From Myxococcota bacterium (lineage in GTDB: Bacteria > Myxococcota > JACRCW01), in contig JBFMGU010000171.1 of NCBI GenBank assembly GCA_040752415.1, positions 1-23,019 on the forward strand: a stretch of DNA of 23,019 nucleotides. The letters run 5' to 3'. This document shows, in pieces, positions 1-23,019 of the stretch (position 1 is its first letter; every line of letters begins with the position of its first letter). The translations under genes were made by a program, and so were the position numbers. The notes below the pieces were generated by a model that did no database searches, had not been told where the DNA came from, and worked only from the letters and a program-made list of their open reading frames with translations.

Positions 1-13
1 GCTCTTCCGATCT
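1..13 (+). other. Illumina TruSeq-type adapter remnant (GCTCTTCCGATCT); not biological
   Basis: The first 13 nt exactly match the shared 3' end of the Illumina TruSeq read primers and sit at the contig edge. Confidence 0.93.
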
Positions 14-162
14 CTTCATGCCGCAGTCCGAAAGGGTGCGGGCACCGCTCCGATTCGTGAGATTGCGAAGCCCGCACCCGTGCCACGTCGGGAAACGTGC
101 CGGCCTGTCCACGAGAGCGAACGCTGCCGGCACTTTCGGACTGCGGCATGAAGTGCCGCTTT
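14..162. repeat. REP-like inverted repeat pair (left arm truncated by the contig edge) enclosing two inner hairpins
   Basis: 14-34 CTTCATGCCGCAGTCCGAAAG is the perfect reverse complement of 133-153. Inner inverted repeats lie at 34-43/70-79 (GGGTGCGGGC/GCCCGCACCC) and 97-104/126-133 (GTGCCGGC/GCCGGCAC). Unit 133-162 matches 1406-1435 at 24/30 nt. Confidence 0.75.
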
Positions 163-338
163 CGCTCGGACCAGCGGGGCGGCCTCTGCCAGACGGAGGC
201 CAAGCGGCGTGACAACTTCAACGGGAACCACTGTAAGCCTGGTTTCGCGCATTGCTTGCAGCTGCCCGGTCCAGCCGATGCGACCTTGTCACAGTCGGCA
301 GCCCGCTCATAGAAGGCCGCTACTCATCGGAGGGTTCG

Positions 339-1280
339 TTGGCCTTCACAAAGCTCCTTGTCGTCGCGATGCTCATGATCTCAGCATCCGAATCGCTGGC
401 CGCGGAGGAGGCGAGCGCCGCACCGTCCCGGGACGTGGCACCGGAGAACCAGCCGCACGGCGACGAAGTTGCACTACCGCAACGCGCGCCGGACGAGGAC
501 CCTGCGGTTGCGCAAGGTAACGCCGCGACCAGCCGGGATGAAGCCGCGTCATCTGAGGAGGGTGACAACGGGCCGGCAATGTGGAGCCTCGCCTCACGCC
601 CGTTGATCGACCTGGCGCCGGGCATGACCGCTGGACTGACGGCGATGGTGCTGGGCAGCGTCCTGCATCTTGGCGCGCTCTACGGGTTGTTCAGTGTCGT
701 CTACACGCTGCTTCTCACCGCGCGCACGCCCGCGCCACGTGTGCCGCAGCAGCCGCTCATCGTCGCCCTGGCTGCGCTCTCCACTTGCTTCTGCGGCCTG
801 CCTTCCCTGGCTGTCCTGGCGCCGTTGTGGGAGTACACCGCGTTCATTGCCGGGTCTTCCGCAGGTGGCGCCGTCAACTTCTTCCGTGCCATCCGCGGCG
901 GTACCGGGTCCCCGAGGGCCCATTTGGTACGCGCGGCCTCGGTCCCGCTATTCGCAACGTTGGCTGGTGCCGCGCCTCTGCTGCTGGGCTGGCCTCTTGC
1001 TGTAGGCGCGCTGGCCATCTTCCTTCCGGGGCTGCTTTTCGGCGTGTCGCTGGGTGATGCGCTGCGGCTGAACGAACCGGGAAGGTTGATCCTGGAGCAC
1101 TCCGCGCTTGTCGTCGGAATGACCGGTGTGGGGCTCATGCTGCTTGGAGCCGCCGTGGTGCGACCCGCGCTGTACATCCTGTTGCGCAATGGCGCGGTCA
1201 CTGTGGACCGGATGGTGCGACACCGCCCGTGGCCCGTGGACAACCGCGCCTCGGTCGACGAGGTCTCCGAGCTGGATTGA
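339..1280 (+). CDS. Hypothetical multi-pass membrane protein with N-terminal signal-like segment and acidic linker
   Basis: Within ORF 252..1280. TTG at 339 lies 5 nt after GGAGG (329-333) and gives MAFTKLLVVAMLMISASESLA-AEE. An acidic linker and several hydrophobic helices follow. It uses more A/T-ending codons than neighbouring genes. Confidence 0.7.
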   Translation: MAFTKLLVVAMLMISASESLAAEEASAAPSRDVAPENQPHGDEVALPQRAPDEDPAVAQGNAATSRDEAASSEEGDNGPAMWSLASRPLIDLAPGMTAGLTAMVLGSVLHLGALYGLFSVVYTLLLTARTPAPRVPQQPLIVALAALSTCFCGLPSLAVLAPLWEYTAFIAGSSAGGAVNFFRAIRGGTGSPRAHLVRAASVPLFATLAGAAPLLLGWPLAVGALAIFLPGLLFGVSLGDALRLNEPGRLILEHSALVVGMTGVGLMLLGAAVVRPALYILLRNGAVTVDRMVRHRPWPVDNRASVDEVSELD

Positions 1281-1294
1281 GTGCGCCTCGCAAC

Positions 1295-1377
1295 GGTTCC
1301 CGTTGAAGTGGTCATTGTCTGGCAGGATGCGCCGCGTTGGTCCGAGCGGTACTTCAACGGAGTGCCACGCGCAGTCC
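1295..1377 (-). repeat. Diverged inverted copy of the 138-229 repeat unit
   Basis: The reverse complement reads GGACTGCG...TGAAGTACCGCTCGGACCAACGCGGCG..CTGCCAGAC..TGACCACTTCAACGGGAACC, versus GGACTGCGGCATGAAGTGCCGCT..CTCGGACCAGCGGGGCG..CTGCCAGAC..TGACAACTTCAACGGGAACC at 138-229 (last block 19/20 identical). It also has its own 10-bp IR at 1300-1309/1351-1360. Confidence 0.8.
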
Positions 1378-1613
1378 TTCCGTCGTTGCCGCCGCGGGCG
1401 CAGCCCTTTGGGAGTGCGGTCTGAAATACCGCTTTGGTTCGGCTCCGTCGGCGATGGGATGCACCGCCGCAAGCTGCGTGGCGACGCACACGTCGTGGGG
1501 CGGGGTCAGCAGGGAGAAGCGCTCCACCGAGGAGCCGAACCAAAGCGGTATTTCAGACCGCACTCCCAGAGGGCTGCGCCCGCGGCGGCAACGACGGAAG
1601 GACTGCGTGTGGC
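1364..1613. repeat. REPIN-like long inverted repeat: 83-bp arms (1364-1446, 1531-1613), 84-nt spacer
   Basis: 81 of 83 positions are complementary. Each arm contains a GGAGTGCGGT-CTGAAAT-ACCGCTTT hairpin unit. It lies between two convergent genes. Confidence 0.95.
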
Positions 1614-1695
1614 GCCGCCACGACCGACTGTCATGCCTCTGCGCCAGGCCTTGGCCGCTACGACGACCCCACGGGTTTGACGGGACCCTCGCGCT

Positions 1696-2823
1696 TCACG
1701 GCAGCGGGTGCGCCTCGAAGAAGTCCAACAGGTAATCCGTCGCGGAGATGTCCTCCGTGGTGTGGCCCAGCAGCGGAATGGAATTCCCTCCTGGCCACTG
1801 GTGACCGCCGCCGTCGATGGTGCACAACTCCACCACCGCGTTGTCGGAGCAACCCGTGTACGCGCGACACGTCACATCACCCTGCTGGTAGGTCACTTCC
1901 GTCGACGTGGAACAGCCGTTCACGTCGGCCCACGCGCTGGTCACCTCCTCCGCGCCGTTCACCCCATCAATGCCGTACTGGTAGCTGACAATCGTGTCGC
2001 TGGTGCCGTGGAAGTGCAGGATGGGCGTGGCGCGTGACGGCGTGCAGGGCGACACCACGACGAGCCCCGAGATGGACGCAATGGCCGCAAACGTCTCCGA
2101 GTGCTCACACGCCAGCCGGTACGAGAAGTGGCCGCCGTTGGAAAGGCCCGTGGAATAGACGCGCTTGGGATCAATGCACAGCGACTGCTGCACGTGCTCC
2201 AGGATCGCCAGCGTGAATCCCACGTCGTCAACCTGGTTGGTGTAGGCGGAGCCGCAGCAGTTGCCCGCGTTCCAGCTCATGCCCGTTCCCTCCGGGGTGA
2301 CCACCACGAATCCGCGGGCGTCGGAGCGCTCGTTCATCCCGCTCAGGTACTTCTGCACGCCCGCCGTGGTGTTCAGTCCGTGGAAGTTGAAGACGAGCAT
2401 GGCGCCGGAAGCCGGCCGCTGTGCGTACGACTCGGGGATGTGCAGGTGGTACTTGCGTGCCGTTCCGTCGTGGGTGAGGTCGCATTCAAACTCGCCGCCG
2501 CCTTCGTCGGTGCATCCGGGGACCACGCCGCTTCCGCAGGCCCCACCTCCGCTGCTGCTTGACGACGAGCTGGTGCTGGAAGCGCTCGTGCTGGTCGCGC
2601 TCGCGGTGCCGCTGGTGGAAGCGGCAGACGACGAGCTCACGGACGCGGAGGTGCTGGTGCTCCCGGTGCCGGTGCCCGCGTCGTCCTGACCGGAAGCTCC
2701 CGCGTCCGCGGGGACACCGCCCGTTGACGTGTTGTGCGTTTCCCCCGACGGATCCTCCGGGCCTTGACAGCCGAGGCTCAACAAGACCCCCAGAACCGCT
2801 GCGATTCTCACGCGTGCGACCAT
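1696..2823 (-). CDS. Lipoprotein alpha/beta-hydrolase, LpqC / PHB depolymerase family esterase
   Basis: This is the C-terminal part of ORF 1696..4989. It has a lipobox (LLSLG-C), a Ser/Thr-rich linker, and the motifs FNFHGL, WNAGNCCG, IDPKRVYSTGLSNGG (nucleophile elbow), HGTSDTIV (Asp) and GGGHQWPG (His). The start at ATG 2823 is an estimate. Confidence 0.88.
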   Translation of the reverse strand: MVARVRIAAVLGVLLSLGCQGPEDPSGETHNTSTGGVPADAGASGQDDAGTGTGSTSTSASVSSSSAASTSGTASATSTSASSTSSSSSSSGGGACGSGVVPGCTDEGGGEFECDLTHDGTARKYHLHIPESYAQRPASGAMLVFNFHGLNTTAGVQKYLSGMNERSDARGFVVVTPEGTGMSWNAGNCCGSAYTNQVDDVGFTLAILEHVQQSLCIDPKRVYSTGLSNGGHFSYRLACEHSETFAAIASISGLVVVSPCTPSRATPILHFHGTSDTIVSYQYGIDGVNGAEEVTSAWADVNGCSTSTEVTYQQGDVTCRAYTGCSDNAVVELCTIDGGGHQWPGGNSIPLLGHTTEDISATDYLLDFFEAHPLP

Positions 2824-2982
2824 GCGGGGAGGCGTATCGGTCGGCGCGCCTGGAACGAGCATCGGACAGGCGGCGAGGTCCGCTTCCTGTCGGAGCCGAC
2901 GTGCACGTGGGACGGGCTCCGGCCTTGCGCCCTCGTCCCCTGCCGGCCATAGAACGCGCCGTCCTTTGCCAGGAGGTCCAAC

Positions 2983-5046
<2,064 letters not shown>

Positions 5047-5341: not shown

Positions 5342-5370
5342 TTGACGTCGCCAATTCACGGACCTACACG
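5342..5370 (+). promoter_or_regulatory. Putative sigma70-type promoter for the diheme lipoprotein gene
   Basis: TTGACG (5342-5347), a 17-nt spacer, then TACACG (5365-5370), about 75 nt upstream of ATG 5444. Confidence 0.4.
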
Positions 5371-5443
5371 CCCGACCGGGGGTAGGGGCCTACCCAGCTT
5401 TATCCAACGTTCCTCCGCAGGGTCGCGGAGGGGGAGCAATCCA

Positions 5444-8400
5444 ATGCGCAGTGTCTTGAAGCCGTCGCTCGGCGTGGTCGTGGTGTCCGCGCTGCTGGCC
5501 GGCTGTCCGCCCACCACCACGGGCGGCACCACCGACACCACCACGTCCACCGCCACCGCGACGTCGTCATCCTCGTCGTCGTCCAGTTCATCGTCGGGGG
5601 CGTCCACCTCAACATCGTCGTCGTCATCCTCCAGCTCGTCGTCGGGTTCCACCAGCACGAGCAGCAGCTCCTCCAGCTCCAGCAGCTCCAGCAGCACGTC
5701 CAGCTCCAGCACCGGTGGCCCGCCTACCTGCGACGAGTACTGCACCACCATCCAGGCCAACTGCCAGGGCGGCAACGCGCAGTACCCCTCGCAGCAGTTC
5801 TGCCTGGATGCGTGCGCGCTGATCGCCAACACCGGCGTGCGCGACGAGACCAGCGGCAACACGCTCGGCTGCCGGCTGTACCACGCGGGCGCCAGCGCCG
5901 ATGATCCGCAGACGCACTGCCCGCACGCCGGTCCCGAGGGTGGCAACGTGTGCGGCACGCCGTGCGAGCACTATTGTGACGTCGTGGAGACCGCCTGCGT
6001 GGAAGGCCTGGCGCTCTACCCCAACCGCGAGGACTGCCTGGCCGCGTGCAGCAGCTTCGGCCAGGACGGCGCGCCTTCCGCCACCAGCGGCGACTCGGTG
6101 CAGTGCCGCAGCTACCACGGCACCGTGGCCAGCCTCTCCGAGGCCAATGCGCAGACGCACTGCCCGCACGCCGGCACCAACAGTGCCACGTGCAACGCGG
6201 GTGGCGGCCCCGTCGACGCGGGACAGCCCACTGACGCCGGCCCGGTGTGCAACCCGGAGAGCCCGGTGTGCACGCCCGCCTGCGGCGCCAACGACTTCTG
6301 CGACACCGACTGCACCTGCCAGCCGGTTCCCGTCGTCACGCTGCTGCCCCGCGCCAGCAGCTCCACCACCGTGGACATCAACGCGGATGACACGCTGGTG
6401 GCGGTGGCCAACCGCGACCACGGCAGCGTCTCCATCTTCAACGCGTCCACCAACACGCTCATCAACCGCATCGACGGGTTCGTCGATCCGCGCGGCGTGG
6501 CCTTCCACCCGGACACCACCACGCTCTACGTCTCCGACCGCGACGGCATCACCAAGCTCACCGACGTGGGCACCGTGAGCCCCGCGCCCGGTCAGACCGC
6601 GCTGGATGGCGTGTGCGCCGAGCCGCAGGGCATTGCGCTCTCTCCGGCGGGCAACAGCCTCTACGTGGCGTGCCTCGACGGTTACGTCGTCATGGTGGAT
6701 GCGGTGGCCCTGACCGTCACCACCACCACCGACCTGCGCGGTGCCAACGCCACCGGTGGCGCGCTCCCGCTCAACGCCGCGGCCATGGCCATTGCGGTCA
6801 CCAACGACGGTGATGCCGACGAGACCGACGAGACCGTGGTGGTCCCGCTCTTCTACTACGAGCGCGTGGCCATCAACACCGCCACCGACGCCGACCTCGG
6901 TGGCCTGGGCGTGGTGGCGTTGCTCGACGACACCGCGGCCGTCGTGAACCGCATCAACATCCAGCCCACGGCGGACACGGGCTTTGGCACCGGTGCGTTC
7001 TTCAACCAGCTCTCCGGCGTCTGGGTGCAGGAAGGCAAGGCGTTCATCCTCGCGCTCGCCGCTTCTCCCAAGGGCCCGCCGGGACCGGGCGCGGCCAACC
7101 CCGACGCTGGCGTGCCGGCCGCGGGTGGTCAGAACACGTTCCCGTACCTGCTCAACATCGACCTGGCCACGGCGGCGGAGGACGCGGAGAACCACATCAA
7201 CCTCAACCGCGAGATGCTCAAGGAGGCCGGCACCATCCGCTTCATGTCCGTGCTCTCCGGCGTGGCGTTCGTGCCGGGCACGCGCATTGGCTACCTCACC
7301 AGCTCCGCCTCCGACGCCATGGTGCGCATCAAGCTCGGCACCGACTTCGAGCTGGTGGACTTTGGCAGCACGCTCTCCAACTTCATTGCGTTGGACCAGA
7401 TGCCCAGCGGACTCACCATCAGCCACGGCAGCCTGGGCGTACGCGCGTACGTCAACAACGAGGTCGCGCGGAAGGTGCAGGTGGTGACCTTCTCCAGCCA
7501 GAGCGTGACGGCCACGGTGGAATCCGCTCCGCTTCCCGTCGACACGCTCGAGGAGCAGATGCGCAAGGGCAAGCGCTTCTACGTCACCAGCACCGGTCGC
7601 TGGGGCAACAACGGCATGGTGGGCTGCCTGGCCTGCCACCCCGGCAACGGCGCGCTGAGTGACAACGTCACCTGGTACTTCGCCGCGGGTCCGCGCCAGA
7701 CGGTGGCCATGGACAGCGACTACGGCAAGGTGGGCGACGTGGAGACGGGCGCTCCGGATCCCGCCAACCAGCGCGCGCTCAACTGGACCGCCATCTTCGA
7801 CGAGATGCACGACTTCGAGCTCAACACGCGCGGCGTCTCCGCGGGCGTGGGCGCGATTGTCAGCGCGGACGCCCTGGCCAACAGCAGCCGCATCAACCTG
7901 GCCAACGCGGGCCCGGACGGCGGGCCGGCCCAGTTCCTGCGCAACTCCACCGCGACCATCGTCGACGACGTGTCCACGCACAAGGAATGGAATGACATCG
8001 AGAAGTTCGTGATGGGCATTCCCTCGCCGAATGCGGGGAGCAGCAACACGGTGGGCGGCCAGCAGCAGGCGGCCATCGCCAGGGGTCGTACCCTGTTCAA
8101 TGACGGCAACTGCCAGCTGTGTCACGGCGGCAGCAAGTGGACGGTGAGCCGCGTTCCGTACGACCCGCGCGACGACACCGGTGGTCGGTTTGCCGCGGAG
8201 CGTGCGCGCACCACCAGCTATGCCGCCGGCGCGTTGTCCGCGTTCAACACCGACACCACCGTGGTTGCCGGCGACGACACCGCCGACAATCCCGACGCCG
8301 GCATCAGCGTGACGCCCAAGCTGGACCGCCTGGCGTGCAACCTGCGCAACGTGGGGACGTACCAGGCGGGACCGCTGGAGGTGCGGCAGAACATGGCGGC

Positions 8401-8683
8401 CAACAACCCCGCGCAGGGCGCCCGGGGCTTCAACCCGCCGTCGCTGCTGGGCGTGCGTTATGGCGCGCCGTACCTGCACAACGGCTCCGTGGCCACGCTG
8501 ACGGAGCTGTTCGGCTCGGCCTACGACGCGCACACCACGGCGGGGAACGTGAACTTCCTGGCCAACGCGCAGACGCGTGACGCGGACGTGGCGGACCTGG
8601 TGGTGTTCCTCGAGTCCATCGACGACACCACGCCGGTCTTTGCCATCCCCGCCGGCGCGGACATCTGTCCCACGGTCCCGTGA
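5444..8683 (+). CDS. Large lipoprotein: Ser-rich linker, two Cys/His repeats, YVTN-like beta-propeller, C-terminal diheme cytochrome c peroxidase/MauG-like domain
   Basis: GGGGAG RBS before ATG 5444 and lipobox LLAG-C. Propeller blades include VAVANRDHGSVSIF, PRGVAFHPD and PQGIALSPAGNSLYVA. Heme motifs are CLACH (7625-7639) and CQLCH (8111-8125). PPSLLGVRYGAPYLHNGS resembles the CCP/MauG signature. Confidence 0.88.
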   Translation: MRSVLKPSLGVVVVSALLAGCPPTTTGGTTDTTTSTATATSSSSSSSSSSSGASTSTSSSSSSSSSSGSTSTSSSSSSSSSSSSTSSSSTGGPPTCDEYCTTIQANCQGGNAQYPSQQFCLDACALIANTGVRDETSGNTLGCRLYHAGASADDPQTHCPHAGPEGGNVCGTPCEHYCDVVETACVEGLALYPNREDCLAACSSFGQDGAPSATSGDSVQCRSYHGTVASLSEANAQTHCPHAGTNSATCNAGGGPVDAGQPTDAGPVCNPESPVCTPACGANDFCDTDCTCQPVPVVTLLPRASSSTTVDINADDTLVAVANRDHGSVSIFNASTNTLINRIDGFVDPRGVAFHPDTTTLYVSDRDGITKLTDVGTVSPAPGQTALDGVCAEPQGIALSPAGNSLYVACLDGYVVMVDAVALTVTTTTDLRGANATGGALPLNAAAMAIAVTNDGDADETDETVVVPLFYYERVAINTATDADLGGLGVVALLDDTAAVVNRINIQPTADTGFGTGAFFNQLSGVWVQEGKAFILALAASPKGPPGPGAANPDAGVPAAGGQNTFPYLLNIDLATAAEDAENHINLNREMLKEAGTIRFMSVLSGVAFVPGTRIGYLTSSASDAMVRIKLGTDFELVDFGSTLSNFIALDQMPSGLTISHGSLGVRAYVNNEVARKVQVVTFSSQSVTATVESAPLPVDTLEEQMRKGKRFYVTSTGRWGNNGMVGCLACHPGNGALSDNVTWYFAAGPRQTVAMDSDYGKVGDVETGAPDPANQRALNWTAIFDEMHDFELNTRGVSAGVGAIVSADALANSSRINLANAGPDGGPAQFLRNSTATIVDDVSTHKEWNDIEKFVMGIPSPNAGSSNTVGGQQQAAIARGRTLFNDGNCQLCHGGSKWTVSRVPYDPRDDTGGRFAAERARTTSYAAGALSAFNTDTTVVAGDDTADNPDAGISVTPKLDRLACNLRNVGTYQAGPLEVRQNMAANNPAQGARGFNPPSLLGVRYGAPYLHNGSVATLTELFGSAYDAHTTAGNVNFLANAQTRDADVADLVVFLESIDDTTPVFAIPAGADICPTVP

Positions 8684-11029: not shown

Positions 11030-11142
11030 CTGCTCGTCCTTGGCCAGTCATGGTGGGGGAACGCAGCAGATGTAGCGACGGAACGCGGCGCCCGCAGCGC
11101 ACGTTTCCCTTCGTCAGCTTCCCGGTCTTCGTGTCAGCGCGT

Positions 11143-11670
11143 TCAGGTGCGCGGCGTGGGTTCCCGCGGCGGTTGGTACGGCACCGGCAATGTCCGACGC
11201 CACGCGTCGCGCTCCCGCGGCCTCACCTCCCGGCTCAGGTAGTGGTCCAACGAGAGCGGACCGGACCCGAACACCGCGAACAGGCACAACAGGAAGAGCA
11301 CCAGCGTGGCGAACTCCAGCGTCCTGGCCTCCGTGAACAGTCCCTCCCGCAGGTGGACGAAGAAGATCGCGCCCAGCACCACGGGGATCTGCATCAACGC
11401 CGCCACGCGCGTGATGAGTCCCAGCGCCAGCAGCAACCCACCCGCCAGGTGCGCGGTGGCCACCAGGTGCGCAATCCCCACCGCGCTCTGGCTCCACAGC
11501 CCGCCCTCCAGGCGCGAGACGATGTACGCCGTGTGCACCACGAAGTTCGCGCCCATCGCAAACAGGCCCAGGCCCAGGTAGATGCGCACCAGCTCCACGA
11601 AGAGCCAGCGGTGTGCATCCAGCCACGCCACCACACCCTGCCGGCCCACCGTTTCCGTCCGCGCCACCAT
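11143..11670 (-). CDS. DoxX family membrane protein
   Basis: GGAGG RBS before ATG 11670. Motifs LVRIYLGLGLF, HLAGGLLLALGLITRVAA and GSGPLSLD, with about four TM helices. Confidence 0.9.
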   Translation of the reverse strand: MVARTETVGRQGVVAWLDAHRWLFVELVRIYLGLGLFAMGANFVVHTAYIVSRLEGGLWSQSAVGIAHLVATAHLAGGLLLALGLITRVAALMQIPVVLGAIFFVHLREGLFTEARTLEFATLVLFLLCLFAVFGSGPLSLDHYLSREVRPRERDAWRRTLPVPYQPPREPTPRT

Positions 11671-11888
11671 GGCAACCTCCCTCGGCCCCAACGAGCCGGG
11701 TCCGTCTCCGCGCGGCTGCGCGCATGCCCAAGGCACGGCCGCGTTGTTTCTGCCGCCTTCGTGGGAGTTAACGCTCCCCGCGGGGGAATTCTGACGTCCC
11801 CGGCTTGCGTTCCACCCTCCGGTTCGCCATGTATGCCCGCGTCACAGCCCACCCGTGATGCCGTCAACCAGGTCACCGGAGCCCACCC

Positions 11889-14800
11889 GTGAATCTCACC
11901 GACGTCTGCATCAAGCGTCCCGTCCTGGCGTGGATGCTCATGGGGGCCACGCTCGTCTTCGGGGCCGTGGCCGCCACGCGCATGGGGGTCAGCCAGTTTC
12001 CCGACGTGGATTTCCCCAACATCTCCATCAGCGTCACCTGGGAGGGGGCGGCGCCGGAGGTGATGGAGAATGACGTCGTGGAGATCCTGGAGGAGGCCCT
12101 CATGCAGGTGGAGGGCATCCGGTCCATCACGTCGTCATCCCGGCAGGGCAGCGCCTCCATCAACCTGGAGCTTGAGCTCAACCGCGACGTGTCCGTGGCC
12201 TTGCAGGAGGTCCAGACCAAGGTGAGCCAGGCGCAGCGCAGGCTGCCGCTGGACCTGGACCCGCCGGTCATCTCCAAGAGCAACCCGGAGGACCAGCCCA
12301 TCATGTGGGTCGGGTTGTCCGGCGCCGTGGCCCCGCAGGTGCTCAGCGACTACGCGCGCTACCGCCTCAAAGAGAAGCTGCAGGCCATCCCCGGCGTGGG
12401 TGAGCTGATGATGGGCGGCTTCCTGGAGCGCAACATCCGCATCTGGCTGGACGCTGCCAAGCTGGATGAGCGGGGCCTCACCATCACCGACGTCATGGCC
12501 GCGCTCACCCGCGAGCACGTGGAGCTGCCCGCCGGGCGACTCGAGGTGGAGGGGCGGGAGGTCAACGTCCGCGTGCTCGGGGAGGCGCTGGACCTGGACA
12601 CCCTGCGGCGCATCGTCGTGCGCGAGGTGGCGGGCAGCCCGGTCTACCTCGAGGACGTGGCGCTGGTGGAGGACGGGTTCGAGGACGTGCGGCGCATTGC
12701 GCGCGTCAACGGCGTCCCCGCGCAGGGCATCGGCGTCAAGAAGCAGCGCGGGGCCAACGCCGTGGACGTGGCGCGCCGGGTCCATGCCACCTTGGACGAG
12801 ATCCGCAAGACCCTGCCGCCGGAGATGACCCTCGGCATCAACTTCGACTCCACCCGCTTCATCGAGGAGAGCGTGGAGGAAGTGGAGTTCGAGCTGCTGC
12901 TCGCCATCCTGCTCACCGCGCTGGTGTGCTGGATGTTCCTCGGCTCGCTGTCCACGACGTTGAACGTGCTGCTGGCCATCCCCATGAGCCTGCTCGGCAC
13001 CCTGGCGGTCATCTACTTCGCGGGGTTCACCCTCAACACCTTCACGCTGCTGGCGTTATCACTCGCGGTCGGCATCGTCGTCGACGACGCCATCATGGTG
13101 CTGGAGAACATCTACCGCCACGGCGAGATGGGGAAGGGCCGCGTGGCCGCCGCGCGCGAGGGCACGCACGAGATCACCTTCGCCGCGCTCGCCGCCACGC
13201 TGGCGGTGGTGGCCATCTTCATCCCCGTGGTGTTCATGAAGGGGATCGTTGGCAAGTTCTTCCTGCAGTTCGGCGTCACACTCTCCATTGCGGTGCTGCT
13301 CTCCTACCTGGAGGCCGTGACGCTGGCGCCCGCGCGCTGCGCGCAGTTCCTCAACACCGGGCGGGAGCACCGCGGCCTCGTGGGTCGCGCGGTGGACCGC
13401 GGCTTCAATGCGTTGGAGCGTCTCTACAGCTGGGTGCTGCAGCGCGGGCTGCGCTGGCCGGTGCTGGTGTTGCTCGTGGCCGGGGCGCTCTTCGCCGGCT
13501 CGGTGAGCCTGTTGCGCACCCTCCCCAGTGAGTTCGTGCCCAGCCAGGACCAGAGCCGCCTCATGGTGCGCGTGCAGACCGCGGTGGGCTCCGACGTCAT
13601 GGAGACCGACAAGCTCTTCCGCAAGGTGGAGGAGATCATCAACGGCAAGCCGGAGGTGACCCGCGCCTTCGCGGTGGTGGGCGGCTTTGGCGGCGGTGCG
13701 GTCAACACCGGCGTGGTCTTCGTGACGCTGGTGCCGCCAGAGCAACGCAAGCTCACCCAGGCGGCGTTCGCGGGGATGATCCGCAAGGAGCTCAACAGCA
13801 TCCCCGGCGTGCGCGCGGTGGTGCAGGACCTCTCGCAGTCGGGCTTCACCGCGCAGCGCGGCTTCCCGGTGGAGTTCTCCATCCGCGGTCCCAACTGGGA
13901 CGGCCTGGTGGCCGCGCGGGAGAAGGTGATGCAGAAGCTGCAGGCCTCAGGTCTCGTCGTCGACCTGGACAGCGACTACCAGGTGGGCATGCCGGAGCTG
14001 CGCATCCTCCCCGACCGCGCGCGCGCCGCCGACCTCGGCGTCTCCATGGGTGACGTGGCCAACACCATCCGCGCCCTCGTGGGCGGGGTGCGCGTGGGCA
14101 AGTACAGCGACGGAGGACGACGCATTGACGTGCGCCTGCGCCTGCTGGCCCACCAGCGCGCGCGGCCGGAGGACGTGGCCCGCCTGAAGGTGCGCGCTGC
14201 CGACGGCACGCTCATCCCGCTCAGCGCGCTGGTGCGTGACGAGGAACGACCAGCGCTGCAGGCCATCACCCGCCGCGACCGCGAGCGCGCCATCAACGTG
14301 TTTGCCAACGTGGCGCCGGGACACGCGCAGAACGAGGTGCTGGCTTTCGTGGAGACGCTGCGCGCGGAGGTGCCGGAGGGCTACCGCATCGTGCTCAGCG
14401 GCTCGTCGGTGGAGTTCAAGGAATCCATGAGCAGCCTGCTCTGGGCGCTGCTGCTCGGGATCCTCGTCGCGTACATGATCCTCGCCTCGCAGTTCAATTC
14501 CTGGCTGCATCCCGTCACCGTGCTCACCATCCTGCCGCTCTCCATGGTGGGCGCGGTGGGCGCGCTCTATCTCGCGGGCAAGAGCCTCAACATCTTCAGC
14601 ATGATCGGCCTGCTGTTGCTCATGGGCATCGTGAAGAAGAACTCCATCATCCTCGTGGAGTACGCCAACCACCACCGGGAGCAGGGAATGAACGCGCGGG
14701 ACGCCATGCTGCACGCCGGCCCCATCCGCCTCCGGCCCATCATGATGACGTCGGTGTCCACCTTGATGGCGGCCATTCCCGCGGCGCTCTCCCTGGGACC

Positions 14801-21205: not shown

Positions 21206-23019
21206 GTGGCCGCAGCAGCAGATCAGACGCCGCTCCTGGGCGCAGACGGCGTGATCCGCTTTGCCAGCGTGCAGGCGCTGCGCGAGGCCATTCCCAAGCT
21301 GCGGCTCGGCACGTTGACGGCGCGCGGGAAGCCACCGCCGCCGGAGACCACCAGCTTCAAGCTGCTCGTGGACGGCGTGTGGGAAGCCACCGCGCAGGCG
21401 CGCATCATCACGTCGGTGGCGGGCCGCATCCTCTTGCGCCTCCCGGACGTGAGTGAGGAGCTGCTCAAGCAGATCTCCGCGCTCCCCGGCGCGGAGATTC
21501 CCGCGTTGCCGGCGGCTTCCCGGCCCGCCGCCACCGAGGAGGGCCCCAGGCCGGAGGCGAGCGAGGAGCCCCCCGCGGCGCTGGTTCCGTCGGAGCCGCC
21601 CGTTGCCGCGAAAGCTCCGGAGCCCCAGCCGGCTCCACCACCCCAGTCGTCCCTGACCTCGCCGGTCGCGGAGGTGGGCTCTCCGGGGCGTGACGTCGAT
21701 CCCACGCCGCCGGCTCCCGCCGTGGCCGCGGTGGCGGTGGACCTGGCGCCGACGCCGACGACGAGCCCGGACGCCCCCCCGCCGCCCGCGGTCTCGGAGC
21801 TCCCGCCGCTGGCTGCTGCGCCGCCCCCGACGGAGCCGGAGCCCCCCGCGCCCGTCCGCGCGCCGCTGATCTCCTCGCCAATCCTCGAGGTGATGCCGGT
21901 GGGGCGGGACTTCACGCCGTCACGGATGGCGGTTCCCGTTGCTGCCGCCGTGGACGCGGGCCTGGTACTCACCCCCGTGGAGGCGCCCGCGCCCATCTCC
22001 TCGGCCGACGCGGGGCTGGTGCTCACGCCCGTGGAGGAGCCCCCGGCGTCGTTGCAGGCCGCCGCACCCGCGGAAGCTCCGCCTGACGTCGTTCCTCCGC
22101 CCCCCGCTCCCGTGGCGGAAGAGCACGTGCCGTCGCCGGAGGCGGAGCGCGTCGCCGCGGCGCCGTCGTCCATCCCGCAAGCCGCGCCCACCGACGCCGC
22201 CAAGGCCCCGCGCGTGGAGGTCGTGCCGCCGCTGGAGCCGGAGTCGCCCGTCGCGGCCACTCCGGTGACCTCGTCGGAGGAAGCCGAGCCGGAGGACATG
22301 CCGCTCGTCGACGGGCGCGAGATCCGGTTCCGCTCGGATGCGGGGTTCGTGCGTCGTCACCAGGATCTGATCCGCGAGGCGGGGGTGATGGGTCGGTGGG
22401 TGGGGGCGGGCGCGCCGGCGTGGGAGTGCCAGGCATTCGCGGTGCGCGTGGAGGGGCATGCGCACGAGGTCTCCTTGATGGCGGAGCTGGTGCCGCTGCA
22501 GGGCGACAAGGTGGCGGTGGTGTTCAAGGACGTGGCGGGGCTGCGCAAGGGGCTGGAGGGCCTGGCCCGCCAGGTGAGCGGGGAGGCCCACGTGGAGCCG
22601 GAGCCCGCCCCCGCCGCGCCCGCGGAGACCACGCCGGAGCTGCCCCAGCCCGCCATTGACGCCAAGGGGCGGATCACCTTCCCGGACCCCGCCGCGTTGC
22701 AGGCGCACGCGCGCGGCATCGTCGACACCGCGGGGCTGATGGGCCAATGGGTGGCGCTCCGTCCCGCCCAGCGTGAGGCCCGCGACTTCGTGCTGTGCGT
22801 GGCCGGTCACGACGCGGAGATCACCCTGCGCGGTGAGGTGGTGCTGCAGCACCTGCACAGCGTGGCGGTGGTCTTCCACGACGCGACCGCGGTCCGTCGT
22901 GAGGTGGGCGCCCTGTTGGGCCGCCTCGGCGTCACCGACCCCGCGCTGGCACCTCCCGAGCCCGAGCCCGTCGTCACCGCGGCGCCCGAGCCCCCCCCCC
23001 CCCCCCCCCCCCCCCCCCC
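21206..23019 (+). CDS. 3'-truncated large protein with Pro/Ala/Glu-rich linkers and three repeated PilZ-like domains
   Basis: Absent from the ORF track because it has no stop. Manual translation from GTG 21206 (after GGGGAG) stays open to the contig end: MAAAADQTPLLGADGVIRFASVQ... GC3 is high. Confidence 0.8.
   Translation, partial: MAAAADQTPLLGADGVIRFASVQALREAIPKLRLGTLTARGKPPPPETTSFKLLVDGVWEATAQARIITSVAGRILLRLPDVSEELLKQISALPGAEIPALPAASRPAATEEGPRPEASEEPPAALVPSEPPVAAKAPEPQPAPPPQSSLTSPVAEVGSPGRDVDPTPPAPAVAAVAVDLAPTPTTSPDAPPPPAVSELPPLAAAPPPTEPEPPAPVRAPLISSPILEVMPVGRDFTPSRMAVPVAAAVDAGLVLTPVEAPAPISSADAGLVLTPVEEPPASLQAAAPAEAPPDVVPPPPAPVAEEHVPSPEAERVAAAPSSIPQAAPTDAAKAPRVEVVPPLEPESPVAATPVTSSEEAEPEDMPLVDGREIRFRSDAGFVRRHQDLIREAGVMGRWVGAGAPAWECQAFAVRVEGHAHEVSLMAELVPLQGDKVAVVFKDVAGLRKGLEGLARQVSGEAHVEPEPAPAAPAETTPELPQPAIDAKGRITFPDPAALQAHARGIVDTAGLMGQWVALRPAQREARDFVLCVAGHDAEITLRGEVVLQHLHSVAVVFHDATAVRREVGALLGRLGVTDPALAPPEPEPVVTAAPEPPPPPPPPP
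22991..23019. other. Terminal poly-C run (29 nt), probably a sequencing or assembly artefact
   Basis: Pure homopolymer at the contig end, within a Pro-coding region that otherwise mixes CCC and CCG codons. Confidence 0.75.

Follow-up and report, generated by a model that had tools for sequence, protein, structure and literature searches.

Mosaic hairpin repeats of a previously unseen family on either side of an orphan gene at one end of a Myxococcota contig

We analysed a stretch of 23,019 nucleotides from a Myxococcota bacterium (lineage JACRCW01; assembly GCA_040752415.1, contig JBFMGU010000171.1, positions 1 to 23,019), hereafter the window, in which a gene of about 1 kb, orfX, lies between two inverted repeat units that we call L and R. 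A previous reading made from the letters alone (hereafter the sequence-only reading) had taken this arrangement for a gene held in the spacer of a doublet of repetitive extragenic palindromic (REP) units and captured or mobilised by it. We favour, at about even confidence, another reading: the first 1.6 kb would be a palindromic repeat cluster resembling REPs and bacterial interspersed mosaic elements (BIMEs), spread on either side of orfX, an orphan. L and R would be two old, diverged members of the repeat family, one upstream and one downstream of orfX, that arrived independently of each other, rather than the functional termini of a mobile cassette. The repeats themselves form a previously unseen hairpin-repeat family that combines head and tail modules as a mosaic, and the lineage in which they are found is GC-rich and poorly sampled.

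Five related units follow one another in alternating orientation within positions 14-1613, in the order a(-), L(+), R(-), c(+) and d(-) (Table 1). All of them are extragenic, and both intergenic regions flanking orfX are occupied. The family is built as a mosaic of two modules. The head module, common to a, L, c and d, consists of a hairpin core (6-bp stem, TGAAG-type loop) followed by TTT, while the tail module (163-229 in L) is common to L and R only. Both types of dimer are present, with a and L arranged head-to-head and c and d tail-to-tail. The arms 14-34 and 133-153, which belong to a and to the head of L, are 100% complementary (21 of 21 bases at the core), and their extended alignment over about 55 nt has 44 matches, 7 mismatches and 7 gap columns. 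Unit a is also recovered by an nhmmer profile of the core (E 0.012), and L and c are 78% identical over 40 nt. The other 21.4 kb of the window (1700-23019) contain no further match to the core pattern at up to 3 mismatches and, with an nhmmer profile at maximum sensitivity, no credible copy (next-best match E 0.43).

The sequence-only reading had reported that the unit to the left of orfX recurs in inverted form on its right, and our alignments confirm it. L (130-235) aligns to the reverse complement of R (1290-1385) with a best local score of 44, a value reached by 0 of 1000 dinucleotide shuffles (mean 15.5, s.d. 2.7, maximum 31) and well above the best score of 28 found elsewhere in the window (886 tile-by-strand comparisons). 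The pair is truly inverted because in direct orientation the score is only 20. An nhmmer search of L against R gives an E value of 2.9e-5. Solid homology joins 163-229 to 1295-1348 (49 matches, 4 mismatches and 15 gap columns in three indels) and comprises the inverted pairs 163-194/1317-1348 at 81% and 210-229/1295-1314 at 95%; the latter agrees with the earlier count of 19 matching bases out of 20 in a block that begins with TGAC. With up to 3 mismatches allowed, the window has exactly two occurrences of the 20-mer, against 0 expected. R begins, as had been stated, 14 nt past the stop codon of orfX (1278-1280), with weak homology perhaps to 1284. The five sequence blocks said to be shared by L and R are all found where they had been placed, but one of them, GGACTGCG at 1371-1378, is not part of R: it sits in the left arm of a palindrome described below, whose partner arm repeats those bases at 1600-1613.

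The L/R pair is not isolated, being accompanied by a further inverted copy at 14-66 and by the adjacent palindrome arms. It is also the most diverged pair of the cluster: 72% of all columns are identical, compared to 98% for c and d and 100% over the 21-nt core of a and L. Conservation between L and R is strongest at the inner edges, which face orfX, and not at the outer ends. Each of the two units has TGAAGT and, inverted, ACTTCA, and could by itself have been a small doublet; we mention this only in passing, because L alone and R alone fold no better than shuffles (z -2.0 and -0.6, respectively).

The core hairpin is intact in L (138-162, stem GCGGCA/TGCCGC, loop TGAAG), and L, c and d all have the 6-bp stem with its 5-nt loop. 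In R the core is broken, with only 1 of the 6 stem pairs forming, a wobble, and R no longer has the core hairpin. Across 14 aligned core copies (4 from the window and 10 from other genomes) 91.7% of the stem cells pair, compared to 82.0 +/- 2.3% in shuffles, none of which (0/500) reaches this value. The fifth stem pair (columns 14-22) is CG in 6 copies, AU in 5 and UA in 2, and two positions covary, although several rows were chosen by a search pattern that fixed most stem columns, which leaves only the free columns (14, 15 and 22) and the unselected partner copies informative for covariation.

The same hairpin core (GGAGTGCGG, 2 nt, TGAAG-type loop, CCGCTTTGG) is found in metagenome-assembled genomes (MAGs) of other phyla. 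Scanning 185,579 species genomes with the core pattern returned 11 stretches from six such MAGs (core loci L001, L002, L005, L006, L009, L011, L008:3997-4100 and L010:3997-4101). By arithmetic, about 1 match is expected by chance for 20 fixed bases in the scanned collection, so the recurrence of the core is real, though sparsely sampled. The core is multi-copy in a Pedosphaera MAG and single in a Blastocatellia MAG and in an unclassified MAG. In L008 (a Verrucomicrobiia MAG) and L010 (a MAG labelled Clostridia) a second core, which the pattern had not selected, lies 47 nt away in convergent orientation. A further stretch, L003, has another palindrome and probably matched by chance. Of the 70 open reading frames (ORFs) flanking the core in other phyla, none is a Y1 transposase, and those with a family match are mostly housekeeping genes. 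The scan gave no copy in any related genome, a negative limited by the poor sampling of the lineage. The 13-nt core strings have 0 occurrences in the literature searched, where we also found nothing evidently relevant that links repetitive extragenic palindromic sequences to Myxococcus.

The only intact element of the cluster is a 250-bp palindrome at 1364-1613, formed by units c and d. Its 83-nt arms are identical at 81 of 83 positions (98%) around an 84-nt spacer, and the region 1281-1695 folds at -174.2 kcal/mol compared to -100 +/- 4.4 for shuffles (z -17). The palindrome lies between the 3′ ends of two convergent genes, orfX (stop at 1280) and the minus-strand gene 1696-2823, which the sequence-only reading had called LpqC-like and which we match to polyhydroxyalkanoate (PHA) depolymerases. 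Terminator-like sites are found at 1416-1432 (+) in core c and at 1561-1545 (-) in core d, each downstream of the same-strand gene; this total of 2 compares to 1.6 +/- 1.3 in shuffles and is not significant alone, and the T run is short and interrupted. The doublet would most likely act as a two-way transcript end (a terminator or a 3′ stabiliser), as described for REPs, with each core supplying a hairpin and a T-rich run downstream of the gene on its side. A trans-acting enzyme whose gene lies elsewhere in the genome may, in addition, use the doublet as a substrate. Bidirectional intrinsic terminators likewise have a hairpin and a T-rich run per strand, each downstream of its own gene. However, the core is repeated, loop included, in other units of the window and in other phyla, which points to something more than a generic terminator.

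Table 1. Coordinates of the repeat units and of neighbouring features in the window
Feature	Positions	Strand	Description
Contig-start bases	1..13	.	Adapter-like; read directly; homology of unit a extends to base 14 and no further (alignment)
Unit a	14..66	-	Inverted head-module copy truncated at the contig start; with the head of L, a head-to-head dimer
Unit L	125..240	+	Head module with intact core hairpin 138-162, then tail module 163-229, weakly to 240
Shine-Dalgarno-like GGAGGG	329..334	+	4 nt before the TTG start of orfX; read directly
orfX	339..1280	+	313 aa; TTG start; coding periodicity, hydropathy, codon use
Unit R	1284..1363	-	Tail module 1295-1348 inverted relative to the tail of L; degenerate core at about 1343-1363
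Unit c	1364..1446	+	Left arm of the 250-bp palindrome; core hairpin 1411-1435, then TTTGGTT
Palindrome spacer	1447..1530	.	84 nt
Unit d	1531..1613	-	Right arm of the 250-bp palindrome; core hairpin 1542-1566
PHA-depolymerase-like lipoprotein gene	1696..2823	-	Extracellular short-chain type, 375 aa; NCBIfam NF050058 E 1.2e-53; lipobox; third-position GC 0.84-0.91

Alternating arrays with both dimer types are typical of REP clusters of the BIME kind. The label REP-like, under which the sequence-only reading had placed the units, is thus a reasonable one: they are extragenic, have a short, imperfect and covarying hairpin core between conserved flanks, alternate in orientation so that both kinds of inverted dimer occur, and include a doublet (z -17) resembling a REPIN. 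A REPIN, according to excerpts of PMC3337134, consists of two inverted REPs that form a hairpin, with spacers of 34-110 bp in P. fluorescens SBW25. The 84-nt spacer of 1364-1613 falls within this range, and the doublet shares the long hairpin fold and lies between convergent 3′ ends. In excerpts of PMC3733652, head-to-head and tail-to-tail dimers and arrays are described for REPs, which are placed mostly downstream of coding regions; R and the doublet agree with this placement.

The units also depart from known REPs in several respects. A REP palindrome carries a GTAG or CGTC tetranucleotide tag at one end (PMC3733652, in excerpt), whereas neither tag stands beside the hairpins of the window: GTAG is absent from 1-338 and 1281-1700, where CTAC occurs only at 320 and 1658, and the occurrences of CGTC/GACG (e.g. 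at 1381 and 1446) never abut a core hairpin. The arms are long (83 nt) and mosaic. REPs are dispersed in tens to hundreds of copies per genome and have a cognate REP-associated tyrosine transposase (RAYT) flanked by the same repeats; in the 23-kb window there is no RAYT and the copies number five, all in 14-1613. PMC5581495, a paper on RAYT classification, makes no mention of Myxococc-, Planctomyc-, Verrucomicrob-, Acidobacter- or Deltaproteobacteria. No Rfam family reached its gathering score, and the two sub-threshold matches at E up to 5 we take as noise. A blastn search of 14-1700 against plasmids and phages gave no other copy, and the translation of the palindrome (1337-1735, one frame), compared with protein clusters to detect spurious ORFs on other copies, gave 38 candidates, none at E up to 0.1.

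The gene between L and R differs from its neighbours in composition. The GC content at third codon positions (GC3) of orfX is 0.78, compared to 0.90-0.97 in confident genes, and its index modelled on the codon adaptation index (CAI-like) is 0.437, compared to 0.64-0.87 for ten window genes, values that are slightly flattered by the presence of those ten genes in the reference set. The codons CTT and GCA, for example, have frequencies of 25.6 and 22.4 per 1000 in orfX and of 1.6 and 2.7 in the reference, and the A/T-ending codons named in the sequence-only reading as unlike those of the core genes are indeed 4 to 30 times commoner in orfX. The gene may be of foreign origin. Its product has a signal-peptide-like N terminus, an acidic and proline-rich linker and then about five hydrophobic helices, and is probably a membrane protein.

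No homologue of orfX emerged from any collection that we searched. A word-index search of 5.8 billion clusters found only orfX itself among 8000 scored candidates, and full HMMER against 1.84 billion representatives found itself and three weak short matches (E 1.9e-5 to 1.3e-4) in proteins of 6264, 1873 and 547 aa, which we take as low-complexity. Among the 185,579 species genomes, 479 stretches matched the search pattern and tblastn confirmed 0 of them; tblastn against plasmids gave no match, nor did Pfam (also at E up to 10), NCBIfam, PHROGs, PADLOC and the sequences of the PDB. The ESM Atlas had no usable feature match, with structural rows at TM <=0.44 for a model of pLDDT 0.45, and AlphaFold2 run on the single sequence gave a low-confidence model (pLDDT 55.3, pTM 0.34).

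These negatives have to be read against the sampling of the lineage. A conserved gene close to orfX, encoding a Dpp5-like S9 peptidase (2983-5046, +), has a best non-self relative only 68% identical among the 5.8 billion protein clusters, and its named matches come from Planctomycetota and Myxococcales-type MAGs. The lineage is essentially unsampled, because even this conserved peptidase finds nothing closer, and therefore little can be concluded on mobility or age from orfX being an orphan or from the repeats being absent from the 185,579 species genomes.

We considered it very unlikely that orfX is non-functional, be it a pseudogene in decay, a frame left open by chance or an artefact of assembly in a repeat-rich spacer at a poorly assembled contig end. 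The failure of every search to find a relative would fit, as would a CAI-like value close to those of alternative frames (0.25-0.43), the low confidence of both structure models (pLDDT 0.45 and 55) and the adapter-like tail at the contig start. The length of the frame is weak evidence for a gene when taken alone, as 29 of 2000 shuffles attain it. Coding, on the other hand, is indicated by a spread of GC between codon positions of 0.258, against 0.047 +/- 0.024 in shuffles (0/2000 reach it), by the GGAGGG motif placed 4 nt upstream of the start, and by the signal-peptide-like N terminus and the helices of transmembrane length.

Positions 1-13 (GCTCTTCCGATCT) resemble what we take to be the tail of a sequencing adapter, and the genomic sequence probably starts at 14. 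The contig break falls within repeat unit a. The repeat or its hairpin may have caused the break and left a read end there untrimmed.

Mobile insertion cassettes and related passenger elements, such as MIC231 of IS231 and those resembling miniature inverted-repeat transposable elements (MITEs), have conserved terminal repeats, target duplications and several copies. The L-orfX-R bracket is like them in having inverted ends around a passenger gene and no transposase inside; unlike theirs, its ends are diverged and best conserved on the inside, with no duplication seen and no second copy found. The closest known architecture is the REPtron or TIRtron, a type of layout reportedly described by Ton-Hoang et al. 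in 2012. In such units a RAYT or TIRYT gene is flanked by inverted REPs or long inverted repeats (Di Nocera et al. 2013, PMC3733652, in excerpt), and a cassette of this kind would here have a membrane-protein gene in the place of the RAYT and be moved in trans by a Y1 transposase encoded elsewhere. The likeness is one of layout: a single gene of about 1 kb is tightly bracketed by inverted family repeats that also occur alone nearby, as in the known arrangement of RAYT and TIRYT genes (PMC3733652, in excerpt). Foreign-looking codon use and the position at a contig break inside a repeat would also suit a mobile unit.

The content of the bracket is another matter, since instead of the defining transposase it holds a putative membrane protein without HUH or Y1 features: orfX has no Pfam match to Y1_Tnp even at E up to 10, and its translation, read directly, has no His-hydrophobic-His motif. 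No remnant of a RAYT was detected in the other frames of 230-1294 (10 alternative-frame ORFs, Pfam E up to 10). As the sequence-only reading had noted, there is no transposase or integrase in the window, and no Y1_Tnp either (130 stop-free segments of at least 100 aa). Neither target duplications nor flanking direct repeats nor element-type ends were seen when the inner and outer junctions were read directly, the outer ones being blurred by neighbouring units, which makes the duplication test weak. A second copy of orfX or of the whole L-orfX-R block was absent from the 1.84 billion protein representatives, the 185,579 species genomes, plasmids and phages, an absence weakened as an argument by the poor sampling of the lineage.

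The repeats argue in the same direction. The hairpin of R is broken, the two ends are 72% identical with three indels compared to 98-100% in the neighbouring pairs, and the best-conserved block is at the inner edges instead of the outer ends. The 1,065 bp between the arms of L and R are about ten times the published REPIN spacers of 34-110 bp (PMC3337134, in excerpt). Taken together, the idea of a gene capture or mobilisation unit finds no support in the divergence of L and R, the lost hairpin of R, the lack of a window transposase and the lack of a second copy. We regard the cassette as unsupported, not as refuted, and rate it as very improbable, if ahead of a non-functional orfX; on present evidence the L-orfX-R bracket should not be annotated as a mobile element.

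We rank the reading as an ordinary cluster first. Two family members in the two intergenic regions beside an existing gene give the same appearance as the bracket. The position of R directly after the orfX stop codon is normal for REPs and would be a coincidence for a randomly inserted fragment. Some observations nevertheless weigh against this reading, beyond the selection of rows in the covariation alignment and the non-significant terminator count given above. Of about 14 intergenic regions in the window only 2 are occupied, and these are adjacent and flank the sole gene of atypical composition, a hint that the event was local and linked and that the two units did not arrive independently. 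No other unit has the tail module of L and R. Both tails face orfX, which is one of four possible combinations of orientation and is as expected from a split tail-to-tail doublet or from a bounded cassette.

The first of these two expectations leads to the explanation that we rank second and consider possible but unlikely. L and R would once have been the arms of a single tail-to-tail doublet like 1364-1613, in the centre of which about 1.05 kb of foreign DNA with orfX became lodged, for example by hairpin breakage and end-joining repair or through a palindrome-targeting element that has since decayed; the arms would then have drifted. Some insertion sequences are known to target REP and BIME sites. 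The inward-facing tails match those of c and d, the tail module is exclusive to L and R, the codon use of the insert is atypical, and with 241-1283 removed the cores of L and R would be about 115-135 nt apart, near the 106 nt between the cores of c and d. At the proposed junctions (230-240 and 1284-1294), however, there is no target duplication and no terminal repeat of an element, and no mobility gene is present. If the insert were a random fragment, its end 4-14 nt past a stop codon would be a coincidence. Neither L nor R folds by itself better than shuffles (z -2.0 and -0.6), and the spacer of the intact doublet is non-palindromic, whereas the rejoined L and R arms would have almost no spacer.

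In another explanation the whole of 14-1613, orfX and the five units, would have been imported from a genome rich in this repeat family, so that the repeats are passengers of an island. All units do lie in a segment of slightly lower GC (0.65-0.68, compared to about 0.69-0.70, in a GC-rich window that ranges over 0.65-0.79) next to the only gene with atypical codon use; the remaining 21.4 kb have none, and the same hairpin core occurs in distant phyla. We nonetheless find an import improbable, if less so than the cassette. The contig breaks within a unit, as expected of a repeat that is multi-copy in this genome, the 98-100% identity of the arms suggests recent activity or homogenisation in place, and no donor was found.

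Finally, the 19/20 inverted repeat 210-229/1295-1314 directly bounds the segment 230-1294, and the left flank of the contig is not represented in the window. A site-specific recombinase encoded off the contig could in principle flip this segment by acting on the 20-nt repeat at its inner edges. We hold such an inverton to be extremely unlikely: the window has no recombinase, the repeats are part of a larger family with other copies nearby, and flipping would bring little benefit to a complete gene that has its own ribosome-binding site.

We also noted several features of the surroundings. On the minus strand, an open frame of 1097 codons (1696-4989) is an artefact of high GC in which only the final 375 codons (1696-2823) are a real gene; according to third-position GC, the remainder is antisense to the S9/Dpp5-like peptidase gene 2983-5046 (+). 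In the secreted product of 1696-2823 and in a larger secreted protein (5342-8683), the signal or lipobox region is followed by a long low-complexity linker rich in serine and threonine; the larger protein has a RoxA-like di-haem cytochrome c domain at its end. A DoxX-family match at 11146-11841 (-) lies opposite a plus-strand ORF of 280 aa (11050-11892), which is probably spurious. In 21500-23019 the GC content reaches 0.76-0.79, and long overlapping open frames are found on both strands, none with a Pfam match. Searches found no tRNA or tmRNA usable as an integration site, no relevant tandem repeats and, within 1-3000, no promoter-like site.

REPs and REPINs are seen as small passengers without coding content. 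The carriage of a whole gene by such a pair, if true, would be a new route of gene mobility, and REP-type elements would then be vehicles for gene transfer within or between genomes. The evidence presented here does not show gene carriage by a REP pair. The core shared across phyla, with its doublets in Verrucomicrobiota and in a MAG labelled Clostridia, may merit a survey of its own.

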